This document shows, in pieces, positions 1,462 through 16,821 of a stretch of DNA of 16,821 nucleotides. Both the position numbers and the translations under genes were made by a program. The DNA is from a virus. Taxonomy: Duplodnaviria > Heunggongvirae > Uroviricota > Caudoviricetes. The stretch lies in IMG/VR virus record IMGVR_UViG_2671180758_000023; one strand, given 5' to 3'. The notes under the pieces are model-generated. The model did not search any database, was not told the origin of the DNA, and worked only from the letters and a program-made list of their open reading frames with translations. The stretch's first letter is position 1. Each line of letters opens with the position of its first letter.

Positions 1462-1970
1462 ATATGTCCTTTTATCACCACAGCAAGGCAACCCATTGAT
1501 TTAATTAAACAACTCACACTGCAAAAAGTGCTAAAAACAGCAAATTGACTACACCATTAACTACACCGTTCGGTGCACTGTATGAAACAACGTGGAACAA
1601 ATAGACACAAGAAATATACAGGCGGGTAATCTTTCCAGGGGGATGCGCACCAATTCATGAGGGGCGTTAATGTCGATATGGGGATCCCCATAACGGGGCT
1701 ACCGGATTTTTTTCCGGTTAACTGTTAATCAGGCTGGTGGGTTTTACCTGTTCGGTAGGTGTTATGATTATCGTAATACTTTTCCCCCAATGGGGTAAAA
1801 GCATCAACCGTAACGGAAGTCGTTATGGTTGCCTTGATGATCTGCGTGGTCATTATGACCATTCAGTCAATGACCTTAATCAGAGCTTTTCGCTAAAAAT
1901 GACGTTGGCCACGTCATCCGGAAAGCACAAAATCCCATCGATTTTTAATTAACGGTTAAACCGTCTTTTT

Positions 1971-2010
1971 GTCACGTCGTGTCACTGGTTGTCACTCTCC
2001 GTCACGATCT
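1971..2010. repeat. Four direct GTCAC repeats at exact 10-bp phasing (gtcacgtcgt gtcactggtt gtcactctcc gtcacgatct)
   Basis: Read directly in the sequence. Preceded by a small hairpin plus T-run (acggttaaaccgtcttttt). Helical-phase spacing suggests a protein-binding array (arm-type or Xis/Cox-like sites); function unproven. Confidence 0.55.
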
Positions 2011-2033
2011 CCGATAGCCTGGCTGCAAATTAA

Positions 2034-2052
2034 ACTACGAAAATTTCGTAGT
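2034..2052. promoter_or_regulatory. 19-bp perfect palindrome actacgaaaatttcgtagt (operator or terminator-like hairpin) downstream of the PerC-like gene
   Basis: 9-1-9 perfect dyad read directly. About 45 nt 3' of the minus-strand ORF ending at 2098. Followed on the minus strand by a moderately U-rich tract (ttaatttgc). Confidence 0.35.
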
Positions 2053-2097
2053 TCTGGCTTCTTTCAGATAGTCGGTTGCCTGGTTACACGAAAAAAA

Positions 2098-2406
2098 TTA
2101 CTTCCTGCGTTTATCCCGCTTTGTATGTCCGTGCTGAATGCCCCGCAGTGGATCTTCTTTTTTCAGGTCGATCCCCATGTCCGTTAGTGTTTTTGTGGCG
2201 GCGGTTCTTATGGCACAAATCAGGTCTCTTTCCGGTTCCCGGGTTATGGTTGCCTTCCGGATACATGCCGTTCGTCGTTCCGTTACATACTGACGCGCTT
2301 CATCACTTGCCGCCTGTTTCAGTAACTCACCCCAGCGATTAGCCGCCCGTCGCCATAAGCCTTTCGCTTCCAGTTCTTCCGCTTTGTCATCATGCACCAT
2401 AAGCAT
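2098..2406 (-). CDS. PerC-family transcriptional activator-like protein (about 100 aa; start at 2406 or 2400)
   Basis: Motif MVHDDKAEELEAKGLWRRAANRWGELL and C-terminal MGID motif, as in PerC/Pch-family proteins. Paralogous to the ORF at 9833-10105. Weak RBS. Confidence 0.55.
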   Translation of the reverse strand: MLMVHDDKAEELEAKGLWRRAANRWGELLKQAASDEARQYVTERRTACIRKATITREPERDLICAIRTAATKTLTDMGIDLKKEDPLRGIQHGHTKRDKRRK

Positions 2407-2452
2407 AATCCCATTGATACCTGTTAAATCTGAATGGTTGGTTTCTGTTCTT

Positions 2453-2484
2453 TTGATAATTTTCCGTATAGCTTATTGTATGAC
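2453..2484 (+). promoter_or_regulatory. Candidate sigma70 promoter for the plus-strand cargo gene (TTGATA -35, about 17 bp spacer, weak -10)
   Basis: TTGATA at 2453-2458 followed about 17 bp later by TTGTAT/TATGAC, upstream of the AAGGAG RBS at 2501-2506. Pattern match only. Confidence 0.25.
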
Positions 2485-2514
2485 AGTACTGTCCCACAAT
2501 AAGGAGTTGCACGC

Positions 2515-2805
2515 ATGAGAATGACCAGACACAAAAAACAGATCCTTGAACTCTACAAACCTGAGTATCGCGATTGGGTGCGGGTGGAGGCTGGAGATCC
2601 ACCTTTTGATGTTCGTGGTGTTACAGTGCTGCTCTATGGTTCCGAATATCAGCGATATCACATAGAGGCAACACGAAGGACGCTAAACGCTATGGTTCGT
2701 GATAAGTTGCTGGAGCGTGTGAAAGTCCGTGAGCCACGTTTTGATGTGCGTATTGGTGGCGATGGTGCGCATTGCACGGTAATCCGCTATGGCCTGGTAA
2801 GGTAA
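2515..2805 (+). CDS. Hypothetical small protein (96 aa) with an internal tandem repeat; convergent cargo gene
   Basis: Strong RBS AAGGAG 8 nt before ATG 2515. Internal duplication PPFDVRGVTVLLYG / PRFDVRIGGDGAHCTVIRYG. Own hairpin plus T-run terminator downstream. Opposite strand to the rest of the element. No family recognised. Confidence 0.6.
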   Translation: MRMTRHKKQILELYKPEYRDWVRVEAGDPPFDVRGVTVLLYGSEYQRYHIEATRRTLNAMVRDKLLERVKVREPRFDVRIGGDGAHCTVIRYGLVR

Positions 2806-2835
2806 GCCATCGGGTAAATCAGATGATTAAATCAC

Positions 2836-2900
2836 CAGAATGTAAATTTACATTCTGCCAGCCACCAGCTACCCTCCTCAAAATTGAGGAGCCTTTTTAT
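2836..2900. terminator. Bidirectional terminator region between convergent genes: 22-bp palindrome cagaatgtaaatttacattctg and hairpin ctcctcaaaattgaggag followed by CTTTTTAT
   Basis: Two perfect dyads read directly. The second (2874-2891) is followed by a T-run on the plus strand. The first (2836-2857) is followed by a U-rich tract in the minus-strand direction. Confidence 0.55.
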
Positions 2901-2907
2901 CAACTGG

Positions 2908-3189
2908 TTACCGCCGTAACCGCTCCGGCTTCTTCCAGTGGTACGTGATTTTCTCCTTCTCCCGATACATCTCCACGCGGCGACGGTATGCCAGCAACTC
3001 AAGGACTCTGGTTCGTATATTGCGCATATCCGCATCGTTAAGTTCAATACCATCACGGCGCATCACCTCAGCAACAACACGCGCATAATTTTCGGCGGTC
3101 ACGCTGTCCGGCTGCGTGGCCTGTTCGTCATGCTGCTGGCTGATTCCAGAGACGCGGCGGATTAATCGCAGTATTTCGGCTTCTGTCAT
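2908..3189 (-). CDS. Hypothetical protein (93 aa) immediately downstream of the large terminase
   Basis: ATG at 3189 with GAGGT about 9 nt upstream. 13 nt after the TerL stop. Charged, helical-looking sequence. No family recognised. Confidence 0.5.
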   Translation of the reverse strand: MTEAEILRLIRRVSGISQQHDEQATQPDSVTAENYARVVAEVMRRDGIELNDADMRNIRTRVLELLAYRRRVEMYREKEKITYHWKKPERLRR

Positions 3190-3202
3190 GCTGCTGACCT
3201 CA

Positions 3203-4864
3203 TTACACCCCGCTAAATTCTTCCAGTTTCTGGCGGTGGCTGTCGCTTATATCAAAAGCAAAATCCTCATGCTCTGCCTGGAATGTACCAAACGCCATCA
3301 GCGCCGCTACGCTCGGGTCTATCTTGTTCGGTGATTTTTTCTTGTTCGGCTTGATATTGGCGTTCGCGTCACTCTGCATCACGACGTTACTCATCGACCA
3401 GGACAACACCGGATCGCCACGATGCACAATCACCCTGCGGTTAACAAAAACTTCGAACGATTTCGCCGCCGGACTGAATCTGAGGTAGGTTTGCGGGAAC
3501 GGCTCCACCTCAAAACCAGCCCCCTGTAATTGCGTCCTGAGATGCGTGGCGTTCCACGTATCAAAGCCCACCAGCCTGATATTAAATTTCTCCGCGTCCT
3601 GCATGATGTCATCTCTGATCCGGTCGTAATCAATGCAGTCACCTGGCGTTGTGCGTATCCAGCCCGCTTTAGCCCACTGGCGATAGACAGCGCGGTTTTT
3701 ATTGGCGGGGTTCTGTAGCTGGAACTCCGGCAGATAATGACGGGAAACCAGCATAATGGTTTTACCTACCGGAAAGGCATAGCACACGCTGGAAATATCG
3801 CTTGTGGATGATAAATCCAGCCCCGCGTAACACTCCTGGCCGTGTAAATCTTCCTCCGTGAACGTTCCGGCACACTCAGCCCATGCGCCGTTACCCATCC
3901 ACGGGGTAGTCCCCTGACACCAGATATTAAATCGCTTTGTCATCATCTCCACCCACTGCGACGGAATACCCCGCGCTTTCTGGATGGTTGAGGCCAGTTT
4001 TTCACGATCCACGGAAACATCGATGTTAGGGTTAGCCTTTATCCACATCGCCGGATCATCAACCTCGTTTTCGTCGTCCAGTTCGTAAATCAGTACAAAA
4101 ATTGAATCGTTGACCTCTTCGCCGTCCAGGATCTGGCAGCAATAATCATAGTGCTGCTTACAGGCTGAAACGACGTTACTGCCCGATGTAGTAATGGCAA
4201 ATAACAGCCCTTCGGGACGTGCGCCCATCCCCAGCTCAAGCGCGGAATAAACGCCGTTATCGGGGTGTAGGTGGTATTCGTCCACGATGGAAAGGCTTGG
4301 GTTTGTGCCCTCGATGGTTGCCGCTTTTGCTGCCAGCGGCTTTAACAGGCTGTTGCTTTTCGGGTGCATCACCTTGTGGGCCTGAATATTCACCCGCCTG
4401 CGTAACGGTCGGGATAAAAGGCACATCTGACGCGCATCATCAAAAACGATCCGCGCCTGGTCACGGCTCACCGCTGCGGTGTAAATATCCTGCTGCCCGT
4501 TCTCCATAATCAGAAACCAGTTAGCCAGAATCGCGGCGGTCGTGGATTTCGCATTTTTGCGTGGCACTTCGATAAAGGCGCTCGTGTATTTGCGCCGTCC
4601 GGTGGCCTTAACCTTAAAGCCGAGGATGCACGCAAAGGCGAACTGCTGCCACGGCTCCAGCTCAATGGGTCTGCCACGCATCGGCCCTTTTACGTGCGGA
4701 CACACCCTGGAAAAGGCAATAAACCGCTCCACAACCTCACGATCGAACGTGTAAAGGGGGCTTTCAAGGTCCGAAAAGTACCGTTTAACGGCCTGTTTCA
4801 GCCGTTTACAGGCCGGAATTTTGCCCGTTTTTACGTCTTCTGCGTACTTATTCCAGGCGGTCAA
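3203..4864 (-). CDS. Terminase large subunit (553 aa), probable TTG start overlapping the terS 3' end
   Basis: Typical TerL N-terminus (MTAWNKYAEDVKTGKIP...) and ATPase/nuclease-like length. First codon in frame is TTG (plus-strand CAA at 4862-4864) preceded by AGGA. Overlaps terS by 17 nt. Confidence 0.9.
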   Translation of the reverse strand: MTAWNKYAEDVKTGKIPACKRLKQAVKRYFSDLESPLYTFDREVVERFIAFSRVCPHVKGPMRGRPIELEPWQQFAFACILGFKVKATGRRKYTSAFIEVPRKNAKSTTAAILANWFLIMENGQQDIYTAAVSRDQARIVFDDARQMCLLSRPLRRRVNIQAHKVMHPKSNSLLKPLAAKAATIEGTNPSLSIVDEYHLHPDNGVYSALELGMGARPEGLLFAITTSGSNVVSACKQHYDYCCQILDGEEVNDSIFVLIYELDDENEVDDPAMWIKANPNIDVSVDREKLASTIQKARGIPSQWVEMMTKRFNIWCQGTTPWMGNGAWAECAGTFTEEDLHGQECYAGLDLSSTSDISSVCYAFPVGKTIMLVSRHYLPEFQLQNPANKNRAVYRQWAKAGWIRTTPGDCIDYDRIRDDIMQDAEKFNIRLVGFDTWNATHLRTQLQGAGFEVEPFPQTYLRFSPAAKSFEVFVNRRVIVHRGDPVLSWSMSNVVMQSDANANIKPNKKKSPNKIDPSVAALMAFGTFQAEHEDFAFDISDSHRQKLEEFSGV

Positions 4865-5204
4865 GCTCGTCCTCTTCTTCTGTTTCCGGTGGATTTTTAC
4901 GGCGGCTTATCGGGTCAAAACCGAGCAAAGAGGCCATTTTTATCATCACTCTTTCAGCGTCGGATTTTGCGCTTAATGCGGGGTTTCTGCTCTCTCCGCC
5001 CTGACTGTTAACAATGCTGAACCCGCGCGCCGCAAGGTCTGCGACGGCTTTCCGGTATATCGAGTAATTGACGCAATACAGTTCCAGATTACTCCAGTCG
5101 GCGGGAGTCAGGTCACCCCGTTCCGCAAGCTGCCGCGATTTTTCCCGCCACTGCTTCACGGCGATATCATCCAGGTAGGCGGGGGCTTTCGGTGGTCTTG
5201 CCAT
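4848..5204 (-). CDS. Terminase small subunit, P27 family (118 aa)
   Basis: MARPPKAP...LELYCVNYSIYRKAVADLAARG pattern typical of P27-family TerS. Position immediately 5' of TerL. Weak RBS. Confidence 0.8.
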   Translation of the reverse strand: MARPPKAPAYLDDIAVKQWREKSRQLAERGDLTPADWSNLELYCVNYSIYRKAVADLAARGFSIVNSQGGESRNPALSAKSDAERVMIKMASLLGFDPISRRKNPPETEEEDELDRLE

Positions 5205-5494
5205 GCTTATTTTTTCGCCAGATTATTTTTCAAAAAATTCCCGTGCATAAAAATTTGAGGAGGCGTTCGGTGCCCGGCGGGGTCGGGTTTGTCCTGAAAA
5301 CGCCCCCCCACCCCGTCATACAGCCTCATCAGCGATTGCGGAAACATTCCATAACCTCGCGGTCACGGTCGGTTAATCGCTTCGCTGTGATGCGTTCTGC
5401 GCGTCCTGACGCTTTATCTTTATGCCCTGTTTCCTGTGTCTTCCATGCGTCACGCTGCCTTATAAGTCCACGGATAAGGCGGTTTTGTTCCCGC
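5205..5494. other. HNH-terS intergenic region; candidate cos/packaging site (G-rich tract tgcccggcggggtcggg at about 5271-5287)
   Basis: 290-bp non-coding gap in an otherwise tightly coupled operon, between an HNH endonuclease and a P27-family TerS, which is the arrangement of cos-type HK97-like phages. The G-rich tract is only loosely similar to lambda cosN (GGGCGGCGACCT). Confidence 0.3.
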
Positions 5495-5935
5495 TCATTC
5501 ATCAGCGTCATACATCCAGTTATTGCGGTTAGCGGCCCGTTCTTCCTCCTCACGGAATCCGCCAGCGGCACGCTTGCTTTTTGTTGCCGGATCAAGCCAC
5601 TTCGTTTTCTGGTTATGACACGCCTGGCACAATGGCTGATGGTTCCATTCGGGCCAGAAGAGAACATCATCACCGCCATTAATCGGGATAATGTGATCCA
5701 CCACCACGGCGGGCGTATATATCCCCTTCTCAAGGCATCGCACGCATAACGGGTTTTTACTCAGATACATGGCGCGGTATTTGTCCCACTGTCTGGAGTA
5801 CCCACGCGCGCGGCGGTGTCCTCGTCTGGCATCCTCTGCACGCCATGCCGCCCGCCTGTGCTCCTCACACTTGCCGGACTTCACGCGCCTGTTACAGCCT
5901 GGTTCTGTGCATCGTCTTAATGGTTGCCACGGCAT
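5495..5935 (-). CDS. HNH endonuclease (146 aa), terminase-associated
   Basis: Cys-rich zinc-finger-like N-terminus (CTEPGCNRRVKSGKCEEH, CVRC) and HNH core (DHIIPINGG...NHQPLCQACHNQK). Start overlaps the connector stop (TGATG). Confidence 0.85.
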   Translation of the reverse strand: MPWQPLRRCTEPGCNRRVKSGKCEEHRRAAWRAEDARRGHRRARGYSRQWDKYRAMYLSKNPLCVRCLEKGIYTPAVVVDHIIPINGGDDVLFWPEWNHQPLCQACHNQKTKWLDPATKSKRAAGGFREEEERAANRNNWMYDADE

Positions 5936-6231
5936 CAGTACACCCCCACATCACGGTAAGCCGTCCAGAGTGCACCAATCGTCATGGGTACGCGTGTTTT
6001 TGCGTTATCCGCGACAATCTGGCGATTTTCATACAGGTGAGCGATAAACATCATGCAGCCAATCTTTATGGCTGGCGTGAACGCCAGCCCGTCATCAAAG
6101 CGCCTGCCTATGTGTATCTGGCACGCCTCAAGCGATGCGGCAATGTATCCGCTGATTAACTGGTCTTCCTCGTCGCCATCGATGCGGCAATGGAGTTTCA
6201 CTTCTTCCAGGGTGATAAGTTCTTCTGTCAT
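5935..6231 (-). CDS. Head-tail connector protein, gp6-like (98 aa)
   Basis: MTEELITLEEVKLHCRIDGDEEDQLISGYIAAS...AHLYENRQ matches the gp6-like connector pattern (LxEVKxHLRID...DxLI). ATGA overlap with the upstream gene. Confidence 0.75.
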   Translation of the reverse strand: MTEELITLEEVKLHCRIDGDEEDQLISGYIAASLEACQIHIGRRFDDGLAFTPAIKIGCMMFIAHLYENRQIVADNAKTRVPMTIGALWTAYRDVGVY

Positions 6232-6566
6232 TTTTCCGCGCCCTCACGACAAAGAATTTCAAGGCGTGTCCTGGCGGCATCCGGCAGCGGCTGCCCGATG
6301 ATATTCAGTACACGCCCCGCCAGCGGCCCCGTATTGACCTTTATCCGGCTGGTGGCGTTGATGTCCTTCCTGTAGCGTATCCATATCCTTACCGTTCCAG
6401 TCGCCAGTTCTGCACCCGATGAAATGGCCTCCTTGCTGCTGATCATGTTCACGCTTGCCCAGAGTGTGTGACCGTCCACCCACGTTTCGAGTATTTCGCC
6501 GGTTATATCCCTGGTCTGTTTCAGGGTCTGAATCGTTACCCTGTCACGCAGTCGCCCTATGTTCAT
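6228..6566 (-). CDS. Head closure / head-tail joining protein (112 aa from ATG 6566; ORF extends to 6608)
   Basis: GRLRDRVTIQ...TWVDGHTLWASV...VRIWIRYRKDI...RIKV matches the head-closure family pattern. ATG at 6566 forms an ATGA overlap with the portal stop. An alternative ATG lies at 6608. Confidence 0.7.
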   Translation of the reverse strand: MNIGRLRDRVTIQTLKQTRDITGEILETWVDGHTLWASVNMISSKEAISSGAELATGTVRIWIRYRKDINATSRIKVNTGPLAGRVLNIIGQPLPDAARTRLEILCREGAEK

Positions 6567-7774
6567 TCCGGTTTTTCTCCCTCGCTGATTTTTACTTCCT
6601 GTTTCCATGCCTGGCTGAACTCATCACCACCATCACGCGGGGACAGCCCTTCACGTTCGCGGGCTTCGTTCGGGCACATAACGCCGGATTTGATGCCGCG
6701 TTCATAGGTGGCAAAGCGTTCGCCAGGTGTGGCCCGTAACAGGTCCGCGCTGTCAAACTCCACCTGATACCGGATACCAGGTACAGGTGAGGCCACCAGC
6801 AGGGCGTTTTTTATCTGCTGCTCAAAGTTCGCCAGCCACGGGCGCATCGTCATGGTGAGAAATGCGCGGCTTGCCTCGCTGAAATTGCTGTAGGTGCTGT
6901 TGCTGTATTCCTGCAAAAAAATCGGCGAGACGTTGAACATTCGGGCGATGTCTTCAATGGTGAAGCGACGGGAGGCCAGCCATTCAGCATCCTGATTACT
7001 CATGCCCAGCTGCTGATAGCTCATACCCCCTTCAAGGATGGGCGTTTTTCCGGCGTTTCTGGCCCCTTTGTAGCGTTCCAGTGCGGCTAATGCCTGTTTG
7101 CCCTTCACGCCGTCCAGCCATTCGCCTGACGTGATAACCCCTGCCGCCATCATGCCATCACGCATCACGCTCGCGCCGTGGCGTTGTTGGGCCAGCCCAA
7201 GCCCCAGCGATTCGCGGCAGATGGTTACAGGTGAGCGCCCCATAAAACCGTCATCCGTGGAGTAACGAAGGTGGAGAACCTCCCACGGTAAATAGTTGCG
7301 GGTGTTTCCGGTGTAGGCGTCAGTGATGCAGTAGCGCCAGTTATGCTCACCTGTCTGCTCCACGTTCACCGACTGCGGCGGGTAAGGATGCAAAGCCACC
7401 GGAAAACCATCACGCCCCCACTGAATCACCGCATAAGCATTACCGTTTAACAGGCAGTGGCGGATCATCATTCGCTTAAACTGGTAGGGGGTTTGCCATG
7501 CGTTCGGGCGCTCGTTGAGGATGTGATCGACCGGATGAGAATCAAGCCACTCTCGGGCCTCCTTCCCCTTCTCATTGCGTACCAGGTACAGGTAACACGG
7601 CATGGTAGCCACCGCCTCAGAGATGACCGTGACGGCGTTCATGACGGCGGGCAGTGATTCCGCTGTCCCCGATGATACGTACTCACCCGCCCCCGTGTTC
7701 GATGTGCCGGCCAGCGCCATAAACTCATCAAGCGTCATGCTGCGCTGCTCTTTTTTTCTTCTGAAAGGCCACAT
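6563..7774 (-). CDS. Portal protein, HK97 family (403 aa)
   Basis: Length and sequence pattern typical of HK97-family portals. RBS GGGGGTG 7 nt before ATG 7774. Sits between the protease and head-closure genes. Confidence 0.9.
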   Translation of the reverse strand: MWPFRRKKEQRSMTLDEFMALAGTSNTGAGEYVSSGTAESLPAVMNAVTVISEAVATMPCYLYLVRNEKGKEAREWLDSHPVDHILNERPNAWQTPYQFKRMMIRHCLLNGNAYAVIQWGRDGFPVALHPYPPQSVNVEQTGEHNWRYCITDAYTGNTRNYLPWEVLHLRYSTDDGFMGRSPVTICRESLGLGLAQQRHGASVMRDGMMAAGVITSGEWLDGVKGKQALAALERYKGARNAGKTPILEGGMSYQQLGMSNQDAEWLASRRFTIEDIARMFNVSPIFLQEYSNSTYSNFSEASRAFLTMTMRPWLANFEQQIKNALLVASPVPGIRYQVEFDSADLLRATPGERFATYERGIKSGVMCPNEAREREGLSPRDGGDEFSQAWKQEVKISEGEKPE

Positions 7775-7775
7775 A

Positions 7776-8348
7776 TCACACCCCCGCTAAATCCGCCCAC
7801 CAGCGGCGATTATCCGCACGCGGCATTTTTTCGGGGTGCTGCTCGTACAGGGAGCGGCGGGCCAGCTCCACGCCGGAATCAGGGTAAGCCGGTACGGATG
7901 TAACGGTAATTTCGTATAGTTCCGCCACCAGCACGGTGCGCACGCATGGATCTGTTGTGGTATCCCATACATCCTTACGGGAACGAAAGCCAAAGCTCAT
8001 GCCGGATATATCACCTCGTTTAACCAGTTCGATAACGTCGCGCCCTGTACTGGTATCCGGTGGGGTCAGTTCAAAGCGTAACCCTGTTTCGTCCTCTTCC
8101 AGTTTCAGCGTGCCGGAACGGGTGCGCCCCAGTAACATGCTGTGGTCATGCTCATACAGGCCGCGAACGTCATTACCCGCCGCAAGCCACTCAGTAAACG
8201 CCCCCCGCTGGAATTTTTCGTAAAACTCCCCCCATAGCAGTTCTGAAAGCTTATCCCAGCGAACAACGTAGCCCGTCAGCGTACCGGCTCCGCTGGTAGT
8301 GATTTCCGATGACCGGATTTCCATACTCTTCATAATTTTTTCACCCAT
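7776..8348 (-). CDS. Prohead maturation protease, HK97 family (about 180-190 aa)
   Basis: Conserved pattern GYVVRWDKLSE...GLYEHDH...LGRTRSGTL...ISGMSFGF typical of HK97 prohead protease. Start may be ATG 8348 or the downstream ATG at 8333. Confidence 0.85.
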   Translation of the reverse strand: MGEKIMKSMEIRSSEITTSGAGTLTGYVVRWDKLSELLWGEFYEKFQRGAFTEWLAAGNDVRGLYEHDHSMLLGRTRSGTLKLEEDETGLRFELTPPDTSTGRDVIELVKRGDISGMSFGFRSRKDVWDTTTDPCVRTVLVAELYEITVTSVPAYPDSGVELARRSLYEQHPEKMPRADNRRWWADLAGV

Positions 8349-8387: not shown

Positions 8388-9545
8388 TTAATCGTCGTCC
8401 TGTGGCAGTTCCAGAATCTTGATCGCGTTCGAATCCACCACGCCACCGCCTAAATATTTCTGCGTGAAAATTTTGATGAAGCCCGGCTCTGTGAGGTTGT
8501 CCGGTCTGGTGCGAACACCTGTTTCGTGATCAACAATGTAGTAACCGCGTTTGAAGTCACCCAGGGCAATAACGTTATCAGGCATAAACTCCAGATATTC
8601 GACCGGAAGGCCCAGCAACGTATCAGGATCACCCGCCTGTAAACGGTCGCGCCAGATGTAATCACCGTTCGCGTTCTTCACCTTCTGAAGTTTTGCCGCC
8701 GTCGTGGAGTTAACCACCCAGACCGCGTTTTTGCGGTATTTTTTACGTAATGCAAATTTCAGGTCGATCAGCGGGTCCGCAGATGTCCACGCCAGAGATT
8801 CGGAAGGTTTAATTACCTGCAACGTACCAAAATCACGCTCTTTGTCGTTCTTCTCTGCACGGGGTACGGATAAAAAACCTTTTGCTTTTTTGTCACCGTC
8901 GCCCACAACCAGATCGCTTTCTTCGGTTTCCGTGAAGGTGTCGCCAATCTCACCCGTCAGCCATGAAAGGATGTCCACATCGGAAAAATCCACGATTTCC
9001 TGTGTGGTGCGCGGGTACGCATAGACCGGATACAGCTTAATGCTCACCTCGTTAATCTGCGGGGTGCTGGTCTGTTCGCGTGTCTTACCCTCTTCACCGT
9101 GGTTAACGGTCGCACCGCCAGCGGAAACAAGCTGCTTAAACTCGTTGCTGCTGATTTTCTTCACGGTACAGATGCGGCGCATGGTGGATTCATCCGTCAG
9201 CATTCGCATGATTTCGGTGTTCAGTTCGGGGATAACGGTATAACCACCATCAGCGGGAACGCCTGTACTTAATGCGCGGGTTTCACCTGTCAGAATGTAG
9301 TTGCGTAGTTCTGCGGGGTCAGTGGTCTGGCTGCTTTTACCTGGCTTGCTGCGCTCTTCGTCTGCAATGGCTTCAAGGCGGGAAATGTCTTTATCGAGGG
9401 ATTCAGCTTTAGCGCGTAATTCGTCAAATTTTGCGCCCTCAGCATCGTTAAGACTGCGGTTTTCTTTTTCCGCGTTCTCCAGCATGTCGCGCATCTGATT
9501 TTTAATGGCGGTTTTCTGCTGGCGTAATTCGATTATTCTCGGCAT
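8388..9545 (-). CDS. Major capsid protein, HK97 fold (385 aa from ATG 9545; ORF track extends to a GTG at 9593)
   Basis: N-terminal coiled-coil delta/scaffold-like domain (IELRQQKTAIKNQMRDMLENAEKENRSL...) followed by a typical HK97 MCP body. AGGA 8 nt before ATG 9545. Confidence 0.9.
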   Translation of the reverse strand: MPRIIELRQQKTAIKNQMRDMLENAEKENRSLNDAEGAKFDELRAKAESLDKDISRLEAIADEERSKPGKSSQTTDPAELRNYILTGETRALSTGVPADGGYTVIPELNTEIMRMLTDESTMRRICTVKKISSNEFKQLVSAGGATVNHGEEGKTREQTSTPQINEVSIKLYPVYAYPRTTQEIVDFSDVDILSWLTGEIGDTFTETEESDLVVGDGDKKAKGFLSVPRAEKNDKERDFGTLQVIKPSESLAWTSADPLIDLKFALRKKYRKNAVWVVNSTTAAKLQKVKNANGDYIWRDRLQAGDPDTLLGLPVEYLEFMPDNVIALGDFKRGYYIVDHETGVRTRPDNLTEPGFIKIFTQKYLGGGVVDSNAIKILELPQDDD

Positions 9546-9634
9546 AAAAAAAGTCCTGGGGTTAAGTAAGGAACTCCAGGACGCGGCAAACACTCAACCG
9601 TTTTTCATAAGGAAATCAGTAATCGCACCGATCG

Positions 9635-15591: not shown

Positions 15592-16821
15592 TTATATTTC
15601 TCTGGCTATTGGCAATGTGGTTACGTTTTCATGTGTTCCCGCCAGTATCCCTAACCGCTCCGTCCACATATCCAGCGCGTCACGTTTCGCATCCAGATAA
15701 CGGGAATGGTTATAGACTCGTTGCATCCCTGGCATCTGATGACCTGTAAGCTGCTCCACGACGTGAGGATCCACGCCTAAATCGTTCAGCATCGTTGTAA
15801 AGGTGCGCCGGATGTCATGCAGTGACCAGTGAGGGTGTTTTAGCCTCCTGTGCGCTAATCTGCCGTACTGCGACACGCTTGTTTCCTGTTTCAATTCCCC
15901 CAGCAATAAGCCCGTGTGCCTGTTCTGCTCCACCAGCTGCGTGACGAACGGCAGTATTGCTTCCGGTATGGGCCGGAATATTGCCACCTTCGTTTTGCTG
16001 TGTTCTTTCGGCACGGTCCAGAGCATTTCGGTAAAATCCCACTCGCTGATCTCCGATAACCTCAGTTCTACCGTCCGGCATCCGAAAACAATCAGGAGGC
16101 GGATTAGTGCGACGTAGTAAGGGGAAAATATTTTTTTGTCCAGTGCCTGCAATAATTCGCCAAGTTCTTTGGTGCTTAAGACACGCTCGCTTATATCCGG
16201 TTTTTTCCCAACGTCCGCCACACTCATATCATCAAGAACGTTGCTGATTGCATAGCGCCGCCTCCGGCAGAACTTAAGCGCCTGTTTGCACGTCTGTAGC
16301 AAGAATCCGGCAGTAACAGGCGTTCGCTTTGCCACCTGGTCAAAACAGGCCAGCCAGTGCCGTAGCTCGCATTTATCCAGCGGCATAGCACCAATGTGCT
16401 GTATTACGTGATTATTAAGGCGCTTTTTCAGGGCGGCATAATCCACGCGGTTTTCCTTTACGTAAGACTCAAGCCAGTAGGTAAGCGCATCGCCAACCGT
16501 TACGGGCTTTAACGCTTTCTGTACGGTGTAATTCATCTCATGACGTGGATTTTTCCCCTCAGCAAGCCAAGCGCGACACTGTGCCGCTTTTTCCCTGGCA
16601 GCTTTCAGACTCAGATCAGGATAATTTCCCAGCTTAATCCGTTCCGGTCGTGCTCCCCTTCCCGTTCCGGCCCTGTAGGTGAAATACCAGGTTAAAAGGC
16701 CGCTGGTTGAATGCCTGACGCTCAGGTTTCCACCGTCATTAAGAAAAGCTGTTTTTTGGGCGGGTGTGCCGTTGATTTTCCTCAGCTGTGTATCGCTCAG
16801 TTTGTTAAGTGCTCTGCTCAT
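15592..16821 (-). CDS. Tyrosine integrase, P4-type (409 aa); start codon at the window edge
   Basis: N-terminal arm-binding-like domain (LSDTQLRKINGTPAQKTAFLNDGGNLSVRHSTSGLLTWYFTYR) and catalytic motifs (HDIRRTF, C-terminal Y in GMQRVYNHSRY). ATG at 16819-16821. Confidence 0.9.
   Translation of the reverse strand: MSRALNKLSDTQLRKINGTPAQKTAFLNDGGNLSVRHSTSGLLTWYFTYRAGTGRGARPERIKLGNYPDLSLKAAREKAAQCRAWLAEGKNPRHEMNYTVQKALKPVTVGDALTYWLESYVKENRVDYAALKKRLNNHVIQHIGAMPLDKCELRHWLACFDQVAKRTPVTAGFLLQTCKQALKFCRRRRYAISNVLDDMSVADVGKKPDISERVLSTKELGELLQALDKKIFSPYYVALIRLLIVFGCRTVELRLSEISEWDFTEMLWTVPKEHSKTKVAIFRPIPEAILPFVTQLVEQNRHTGLLLGELKQETSVSQYGRLAHRRLKHPHWSLHDIRRTFTTMLNDLGVDPHVVEQLTGHQMPGMQRVYNHSRYLDAKRDALDMWTERLGILAGTHENVTTLPIAREI

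Follow-up and report, generated by a model that had tools for sequence, protein, structure and literature searches.

Evidence for a cos site of the HNH-dependent P27/SfV/HK97 type upstream of terS in a capsid-forming PICI

Capsid-forming PICIs (cf-PICIs) are defined here as islands of ~10 to 18 kb with an integrase gene, a replication module, and capsid, protease, portal and connector genes followed by hnh, terS and terL, without tail or lysis genes. Induction by a helper phage, and transfer in their own small capsids with helper tails, have been shown for EcCIEDL933 and KpCIDSM30104 (bioRxiv 10.1101/2022.09.08.507074; 10.1101/2025.02.11.637232). Packaged KpCIDSM30104 DNA concatemerises via cohesive cos ends (10.1101/2025.02.11.637232), and no cos coordinates for cf-PICIs are given in bioRxiv 10.1101/2022.09.08.507074 or 10.1101/2025.02.11.637232. 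Other satellites, namely cos-type SaPIs and P4, carry the cos of their helper phage (cited in bioRxiv 10.1101/2022.09.08.507074). They resemble the element described here in being satellites with cos-dependent packaging, some of them in HNH-dependent systems, but they borrow both the terminase and the cos of the helper, whereas this element has its own HNH, TerS, TerL and capsid genes.

The cos site of phage lambda is made up of cosQ, cosN and cosB, generates 12-nt 5′ overhangs and has no HNH partner. Phage HK97 has the gene order hnh, cos, terS, terL, as in the element described here, and cleavage that is stimulated by its HNH protein, gp74. Its DNA has 10-nt 3′ overhangs, and its TerS binds positions +15 to +29, with a C:G pair at position 21 and a T-run (PMC11331095, PMC9410871). 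For the Shigella phage SfI, comparison of sequenced virion ends with the prophage revealed a gap of 10 nt, TGCCCGCCCC (PMC3636060). A G+C-rich 10-nt 'cos-site', CGCCCGCCCC, is annotated in phage P27 between the genes coding for HNH (L34) and TerS (L35), as misc_feature 21806-21815 of GenBank entry AJ298298. It is preceded by GGGAC and followed by GTCAAATTTTTACAC, with a G-run ~40 nt upstream.

We analyzed a stretch of 16,821 nucleotides, called the window hereafter, in which ORF listing and Pfam scans identified host phoQ (1-1461) and a ~15-kb cf-PICI resembling EcCIEDL933, with its integrase gene at 15592-16821. The packaging operon is on the minus strand and includes the genes for the major capsid protein (8388-9593), the prohead protease (7776-8348), the portal (6563-7774), a head completion protein (6228-6608) and a gp6-like connector (5935-6231). 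Other cf-PICI genes in the window code for DUF4222, AAA_25 replication, SSB and PerC proteins, and the same scans found no tail genes in the island. The island thus contains the gene set by which cf-PICIs are defined, and its layout is that of the prototype, EcCIEDL933 (bioRxiv 10.1101/2022.09.08.507074). The chromosomes of O157:H7 and other STEC strains carry copies that are 99.1% identical to it over the hnh-terS segment, which is present in 514 of 5,426 complete E. coli genomes.

On the integrated map, the upstream neighbor of the proposed cos site is the HNH endonuclease gene (5495-5935, minus strand), whose 146-aa product matches Pfam HNH (E = 1.8e-8) and phrog_144 (E = 8e-45) and is 39% identical to HK97 gp74 (E = 2e-19) and 38% identical to P27 L34 (E = 3e-18). 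On the other side, terS (4848-5204, minus strand) codes for a 118-aa small terminase of the P27 family (Pfam Terminase_4, E = 1.3e-23; 31% identity to P27 L35, E = 5e-17). It is followed by terL (3203-4864, minus strand), coding for a 553-aa HK97-like large terminase with the Pfam TerL_ATPase and TerL_nuclease domains and 27% identity with HK97 gp2 across 506 aa (E = 9e-47). The HK97 system differs in that the window's TerS has no BLAST similarity to HK97 gp1, a protein that itself yields no Pfam hit, although TerL and HNH do match their HK97 counterparts. The cognate trio of the HNH-dependent P27/HK97-type cos, HNH, an HK97-like TerL and a small terminase, is present, and the site has the same position as in those systems, between hnh and terS, all on the minus strand. 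The original prediction had recognized a cos-packaging arrangement in an HNH gene lying beside that of a P27-family small terminase, and the Pfam, HK97 and P27 matches confirm it, with an HK97-like TerL.

On the minus strand, the last position of the HNH ORF is 5495 and the first of terS is 5204, leaving a 290-bp interval (5205-5494) that had been described as the only large gap of the operon. The interval does stand out, as the other operon junctions overlap or are very short, but it is not empty. The minus-strand ORF at 5329-5511, initially noted as a possible, uncalled ORF with a weak ribosome-binding site, is annotated by RefSeq/PGAP as WP_000174068.1 in the 99.1%-identical O157:H7 copy NZ_AP018488, and it matches phrog_3173, a family of unassigned function, over the whole 57-position profile (E = 7.5e-37). 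As this alignment begins at residue 4 of the ORF, translation likely starts at the ATG at 5502 (MNEREQ...) rather than at the PGAP start at 5511, which would give a gene of 174 bp (5329-5502, minus strand) coding for 57 aa followed by a stop codon. Its reading frame and its C-terminal motif RDRE[LV]xECFRNR, directly before the stop codon, are kept in 73 distinct protein variants from related loci. The gene is missing from the Xenorhabdus and Aeromonas loci, and its sole match among deposited phage records is one cf-PICI-like contig. Since this ORF is a real gene, the non-coding gap, which is the entire proposed cos region, measures 124 bp (5205-5328, minus strand) and not 290 bp.

Read on the gene-sense strand, i.e., the minus strand of the window, the gap begins with a conserved G-run element, box1 (GGGGTGGGGGGGCGTTTTCAGGACAAA; 5288-5314), located 14 nt after the end of the small ORF and 14 to 40 nt upstream of the predicted right-end cut. 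A variable spacer of ~13 nt (5275-5287) that differs by lineage separates it from the pentamer GGCAC (5270-5274), the predicted last duplex bases of the right, hnh-side packaged end. Next come the predicted 10-nt cohesive end 5′-CGAACGCCTC-3′ (GAGGCGTTCG on the plus strand; 5260-5269), a putative 3′ overhang, and box2 (CTCAAATTTTTATGCACGGGAATTTTTTGAAAAATAA; 5223-5259), the predicted start of the left, terS-side end and a putative, cosB-like TerS recognition region. A variable leader with the terS ribosome-binding region (5205-5222) completes the gap. In the family, box1 takes the form GGGGTGGGGG[AG]G(G)TTTTCAGGACAAA (5314-5288 in the window), the pentamer GG[CA]AC (5274-5270) and box2 CTCAAATTTTTA[CT]GCACGGnnATTTTTTTGAAAATAA (5259-5223), and the G+C-rich 10-mer reads CGCCCGCCCC or CACCCGCCCC in most loci other than the window. 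The G-rich tract tgcccggcggggtcgggtttgtcc noted in the original prediction is present at 5271-5294 of the plus strand, but it is not the conserved core, as it covers GGCAC, the spacer, where conservation in the gap is lowest, and the part of box1 nearest to terS. A single match to the composite motif GGCAC-N10-CTCAAATTTTTAYGCACGG was found in the window, against none in 200 shuffled sequences, even when three mismatches are allowed.

Might the window's copy be a true cos by descent that has become inactive, a relic in a decaying island? Such decay does occur, as a Shigella flexneri copy has lost 98 bp by deletion, including the cos core and codons 1 to 9 of terS, and the run in the window's box1 has 7 G compared with 6 in most E. 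coli copies. Nevertheless, neither the blocks and their spacings nor the flanking ORFs are damaged in the window, two other loci have a 124-bp gap of identical sequence, and the length of the run is naturally polymorphic (5 to 8 G). We thus regard loss of function of this copy as unlikely.

Loci were gathered by TerS homology, 33 from different genera and 80 from E. coli in IMG/VR; the genera include Klebsiella, Citrobacter, Enterobacter, Kosakonia, Serratia, Rahnella, Erwinia, Pantoea, Pectobacterium, Xenorhabdus and Aeromonas. Mean pairwise identity among 31 sequences from different genera (about 30 genera) was 0.84 for box2, 0.86 for GGCAC, 0.78 for the 10-mer and 0.72 for box1, compared with 0.86, 0.90 and 0.53 for the first, second and third codon positions of terS, 0.39 for the spacer, 0.52 for the variable leader and 0.29 for the small ORF. 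The conserved non-coding DNA of the gap is therefore constrained like the amino-acid-determining (non-synonymous) sites of terS, and strong purifying selection acts on the gap across genera. Of the 117 distinct family variants, 113 have exactly 10 nt separating GGNAC from CTCAAA.

A blastn search of 50,697 phage records with the family-consensus gap hit phage P27 (AJ298298/NC_003356) precisely on its annotated cos-site. In a MAFFT alignment, the P27 cos elements share columns with GGCAC, CGAACGCCTC and CTCAAATTTTTATGC of the window; that is, the flanks GGGAC and GTCAAATTTTTAC of the P27 site align with the window's GGCAC and CTCAAATTTTTAT on either side of CGAACGCCTC. The P27 10-mer, CGCCCGCCCC, is identical to one of the commonest cf-PICI variants, whereas that of the window deviates from it at 3 positions (7 of 10 match P27 and the consensus). 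Beyond about +13 the terS-side sequences diverge fully, with CACCCGCGAAATTAAAAATTTCAGG in P27 versus TGCACGGGAATTTTTTGAAAAATAA in the window. P27 also differs in being a complete tailed phage and in having no small ORF between hnh and cos. The gap reported for SfI is the same kind of signature, and its 10-mer is nearly that of the cf-PICI consensus; SfI and SfV are lambdoid tailed phages, and the likeness is one of the 10-mer. A literature search for the 10-mers returned irrelevant papers only.

For HK97, whose GenBank numbering matches the published T16, C:G21 and T24-29, the right and left ends were joined and then aligned with the cf-PICI gaps. Position +1 of HK97 aligns with the C of CTCAAA, the last duplex base before the overhang with the last C of GGCAC, and the last 10 nt of the HK97 record occupy the same columns as the window's predicted cohesive end. 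The pentamer preceding the 10-nt end is thereby GGCAC in the window, GGGAC in P27 and ATGAC in HK97. Both HK97 and the cf-PICIs have a G-run ~33 to 45 nt before the cut, at the same distance, which P27 shares, a 10-nt stagger, AC/CGCC at the right end, ACGC at +12 to +15, and a T-run, at about +24 to +30 in HK97 and about +23 to +29 in cf-PICIs (+23 to +28 in the window). By this correspondence, the equivalent in the window of the minimal HK97 TerS site (+15 to +29) would be CACGGGAATTTTTTG (5245-5231), to which the satellite's TerS may bind. Pairwise semi-global alignment of the HK97 junction with cf-PICI gaps was not significant against 1000 dinucleotide shuffles (z from -0.3 to 2.2), and an nhmmer profile built from 30 cf-PICI cos regions gave its top hit on circularised HK97 at cos, at an E value of only 0.24. 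As the DNA similarity is that weak, HK97 was used for architecture only and not as proof of homology. HK97 differs further from the cf-PICIs by a 319-bp stretch after gp74 in place of the phrog_3173 gene.

Two assemblies of relatives have physical ends at or within this region. The metagenomic contig IMGVR_UViG_3300022664_000095 (15,518 bp) has the full cf-PICI gene set without host flank, in the order terS-terL-int-...-capsid-...-hnh-small ORF. It starts with CTCAAATTTTTACGCACGG, i.e., at CTCAAATTTTTACGC (CTCAAATT...), and ends with ...TTTTCAGGACAAAACCCAAGCCGCAAGGCAC, i.e., with ...GGCAC, so that it stops on both sides of the 10-mer and lacks exactly those 10 nt. With a circular or concatemeric template the contig ends would overlap, and filled-in 5′ overhangs would be present twice. 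The 10 nt being absent rather than duplicated would suggest 3′ overhangs if the library was end-polished, a step that removes them. Of ~190 IMG/VR contigs with the motif, among the matches listed, this one ends at the site, and the rest are integrated copies or fragments. The second assembly, vB_KppS-Ant (LR881103), corresponds to KpCIDSM30104; DNA from a lysate of K. pneumoniae DSM 30104 was sequenced with Nextera XT and assembled with SPAdes (PMC8006926). Its sequence equals that of the integrated copy in the ATCC 13883 genome except for 69 missing nt, composed of the 21 nt before the 10-mer, the 10-mer and the 38 nt after it. Since the outermost tens of bases of a linear molecule are lost in tagmentation libraries, this absence argues that the physical ends of vB_KppS-Ant lie inside the gap. 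This end evidence comes from relatives with ~83% TerS identity rather than from the window's element.

Other records were considered for their ends and set aside. The locus L312, which starts 1 nt before AAATTTTT, was left out as its contig end is unconfirmed, and the E. coli draft contig L275, which stops at ...GGGCACC, was discounted because a break in a draft assembly does not mark the end of a molecule. As a second virion record, PQ569648 (Klebsiella phage P12620-1) is uninformative, since its cf-PICI part runs into unrelated sequence at terS and is cut short within the small ORF. The Pasteurella records Pmp7 and Pmp8 share the cos block but neither start nor end there. A box2 scan of JGI/ENA metagenome contigs retrieved 49 loci and no further clear contig ends.

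Conservation of non-coding DNA does not by itself name the function under selection, and the block lies directly upstream of terS and is A/T-rich near the start codon; it might accordingly control transcription or translation of terS-terL, for instance through an internal promoter, through antitermination or by masking the ribosome-binding site. A scan of the gene strand over 4800-6000 detected neither a sigma-70-like promoter nor a terminator, however, and the 18 nt next to the start codon are less conserved (0.52), the peak being 20 to 70 nt upstream. The block also matches an annotated phage cos-site to the base, and linear assemblies end there; we consider a control region quite improbable.

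The ends of the relatives also bear on headful packaging, in which the block would be a pac recognition site and the DNA would have no defined ends. Recognition sites adjacent to the small terminase gene are known in pac systems too, and the end evidence for the window's own element is indirect. Yet HNH with an HK97-like TerL and a P27-family TerS is a cos arrangement, the homologous P27 site is annotated as cos, and the whole-element contig has unique ends that are 10 nt apart on the circular map. Together with the cohesive-end concatemers formed by KpCIDSM30104 DNA (10.1101/2025.02.11.637232), these observations make a pac mechanism very unlikely.

The weak dyads noted in the original prediction were found again, at 5227-5243/5284-5300 (71% complementarity) and 5256-5267/5299-5310 (83%). 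The former is imperfect, and its center is at most 1 nt from that of the predicted 10-nt stagger. The G-run of box1 is complementary to the C-rich 10-mer region. We give the dyads little weight because they show no covariation across the family. That the gap encodes a structured RNA, i.e., a small RNA or a cis-regulatory leader, is highly improbable: the G-run and C-run could pair and RNAalifold gives an 8-pair helix, but Rfam gave no match at E <= 1, shuffled sequences reach comparable minimum free energies (z = -0.68), and the consensus energy is only -7.6 kcal/mol, with no compensatory pair in 22 sequences.

The proposal that a cos site lies between hnh and terS is thus supported by selection across genera, by the base-for-base alignment with the P27 cos-site and the HK97 ends, and by the ends of two relatives' assemblies. 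We conclude that 5205-5328 is very probably the cos site of this cf-PICI, of the HNH-dependent P27/SfV/HK97 type. That the cohesive ends are 10 nt long is supported by the spacing, which is the same in 113 of 117 variants, and by the linear contig, from which just these 10 nt are absent. Their 3′ polarity in the window's element is the one expected from HK97 (PMC9410871, PMC11331095) and from the absence, instead of duplication, of those 10 nt in the contig.

With such a site, packaging would proceed as follows. After excision and replication of the island, the satellite's own TerS would recognize box2, from about +13 to +37 relative to the cut, whose T-run resembles the one needed by HK97 TerS. 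TerL, aided by HNH, would make two nicks 10 nt apart, one between GGCAC (5270) and C5269 and the other between C5260 and C5259, so that the molecule would have 3′ cohesive ends of 10 nt, with the sequence CGAACGCCTC on the gene-sense strand. DNA would then enter the capsid from the terS side, in the order terL, att junction, int, replication genes, capsid genes, hnh and small ORF, until the following cos of the concatemer is reached. At that cos, box1 with its G-run would lie on the last-packaged end, where it may act as a cosQ-like or nuclease-side element. As proposed, the arrangement would resemble that of lambda in having an upstream element at the last-packaged end, a near-dyad nicking site and a TerS-binding region toward the terminase genes; the sequences and the small terminase of lambda are unrelated, and a cosQ-like role of box1 is an analogy only.

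Whether the site is specific to satellites, as originally suggested, has a different answer for each of its parts. The cut core, GGNAC followed by 10 nt and NTCAAATTTTTA, is common to P27 and cannot be called satellite-specific. The terS-side block from about +13 to +37, on the other hand, is restricted among the 50,697 phage records to cf-PICI-like ones, namely, vB_KppS-Ant, an E. coli O157 lysate contig, the Pasteurella records Pmp7/8 and the chimeric Klebsiella record, and it occurs in no deposited complete phage of that set. From about +13 on, the sequence is nearly invariant among cf-PICIs and unrelated to those of P27 and HK97. This distribution suggests that specificity resides in the TerS address rather than in the nicking site. 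More tentatively, cf-PICI cos sites might have two layers, a cut core shared with P27/SfV-type phages (GGNAC, 10 nt, NTCAAATTTTTA) and a private TerS address (about +13 to +37), conserved between Escherichia, Xenorhabdus and Aeromonas and possibly recognized jointly with the 57-aa phrog_3173 protein that is restricted to cf-PICIs, the address keeping satellite and helper packaging mutually exclusive. We view this two-layer code as a possibility, and a rather doubtful one.

These results leave knowledge of how cos sites of the HNH-dependent class work unchanged, and the cf-PICI class had already been described; two database records were corrected by the analysis. What they provide is a prediction at the level of the base: the right end is expected at ...GGCAC, the cohesive end at 5260-5269, and the left end, with the conserved terminase-side block, at CTCAAATT. 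Possible uses include minimal cos cassettes for cf-PICI-based delivery particles and the recognition, by their ends, of complete virion-derived cf-PICI genomes in viromes. As cf-PICIs package only themselves, a cos predicted to the base makes this exclusivity directly testable. If the two-layer code were true, identical islands could work with tails from many hosts.

A Shigella flexneri locus related to the window element (L085, CP182556.1) carries a 98-bp deletion, the counterpart of window 5178-5275, flanked by two copies of the 7-nt sequence CCCCGCC. The deletion takes out GGCAC, i.e., the predicted right end, together with the adjacent 10-mer, box2, the RBS and codons 1-9 of terS, and self-packaging of this copy should be lost. 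The box1 G homopolymer following GGGGT (5301-5310) has a length of 7 in the window. Among related E. coli loci, the length is 6 (n=58), 5 (n=4), 7 (n=4) or 8 (n=2). Lengths of 5 to 8 among E. coli loci indicate that the conserved box1 includes a length-variable run.

The 14-nt sequence across the predicted right-end cut (window 5259-5272; CACCGAACGCCTCC on the gene strand) recurs with 86% identity as CACCGAAAGCCCCC at window 5181-5194, 78 nt downstream and within terS codons 4-8, and in the family consensus ACCGCCCGC is also found at both the predicted cut and the terS position. This repeat may have arisen by chance or may be a by-product of the conserved sequence coding for PPKPPAY. Two collected sequences stop or start near the predicted ends. 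A contig from an E. coli draft genome (L275, IMGVR_UViG_2563366883_000010) stops at ...GGGCACC, 1 nt beyond the predicted right end, and a metagenome locus (L312, JAEHJW020008655.1) opens with CAAATTTTT, so that its first base lies 2 nt inward of the predicted left end. These boundaries may represent either physical ends or assembly or storage boundaries.

The small phrog_3173 gene beside cos (5329-5502, minus strand) codes for a basic protein of 57 aa, and its 3′ end lies 14 nt before the G-run box. Both the reading frame and a C-terminal motif, RDRE[LV]xECFRNR, are kept across the cf-PICIs of Enterobacterales. The gene is absent in the Xenorhabdus and Aeromonas relatives, and the protein's sole match in a set of 50,697 deposited phage records is one cf-PICI-like contig. 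The position of the gene suggests that its product is a possible packaging accessory.

LR881103.1 (L002, vB_KppS-Ant), an "Escherichia phage" in GenBank and a filamentous ssDNA prophage according to its own paper (PMC8006926), is KpCIDSM30104, a cf-PICI from K. pneumoniae DSM 30104/ATCC 13883. The record is devoid of 69 nt around cos. Downstream of terL it includes a 2.3-kb CDS (2036-4333) with the annotation "tape measure protein", to which nothing in the window corresponds. In PQ569648.1 (Klebsiella phage P12620-1; L004, 89500-106503), a cf-PICI makes up the final ~15.9 kb of a 106.5-kb "complete genome"; it begins at terS, fused to unrelated sequence, and breaks off within the small ORF. 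This record appears to be a chimera, with a phage and a satellite packaged alongside it assembled into one sequence.

At 1-1461 and ~1500-3200 of the window, the island adjoins phoQ, whereas the near-identical copy in O157:H7 has ydgD/mdtJI and a truncated gene for an autoinducer-2 transporter nearby. The replication module contains AAA_25 in the former and a primase in the latter. Thus, closely related packaging modules are found at differing chromosomal sites, with differing replication modules.
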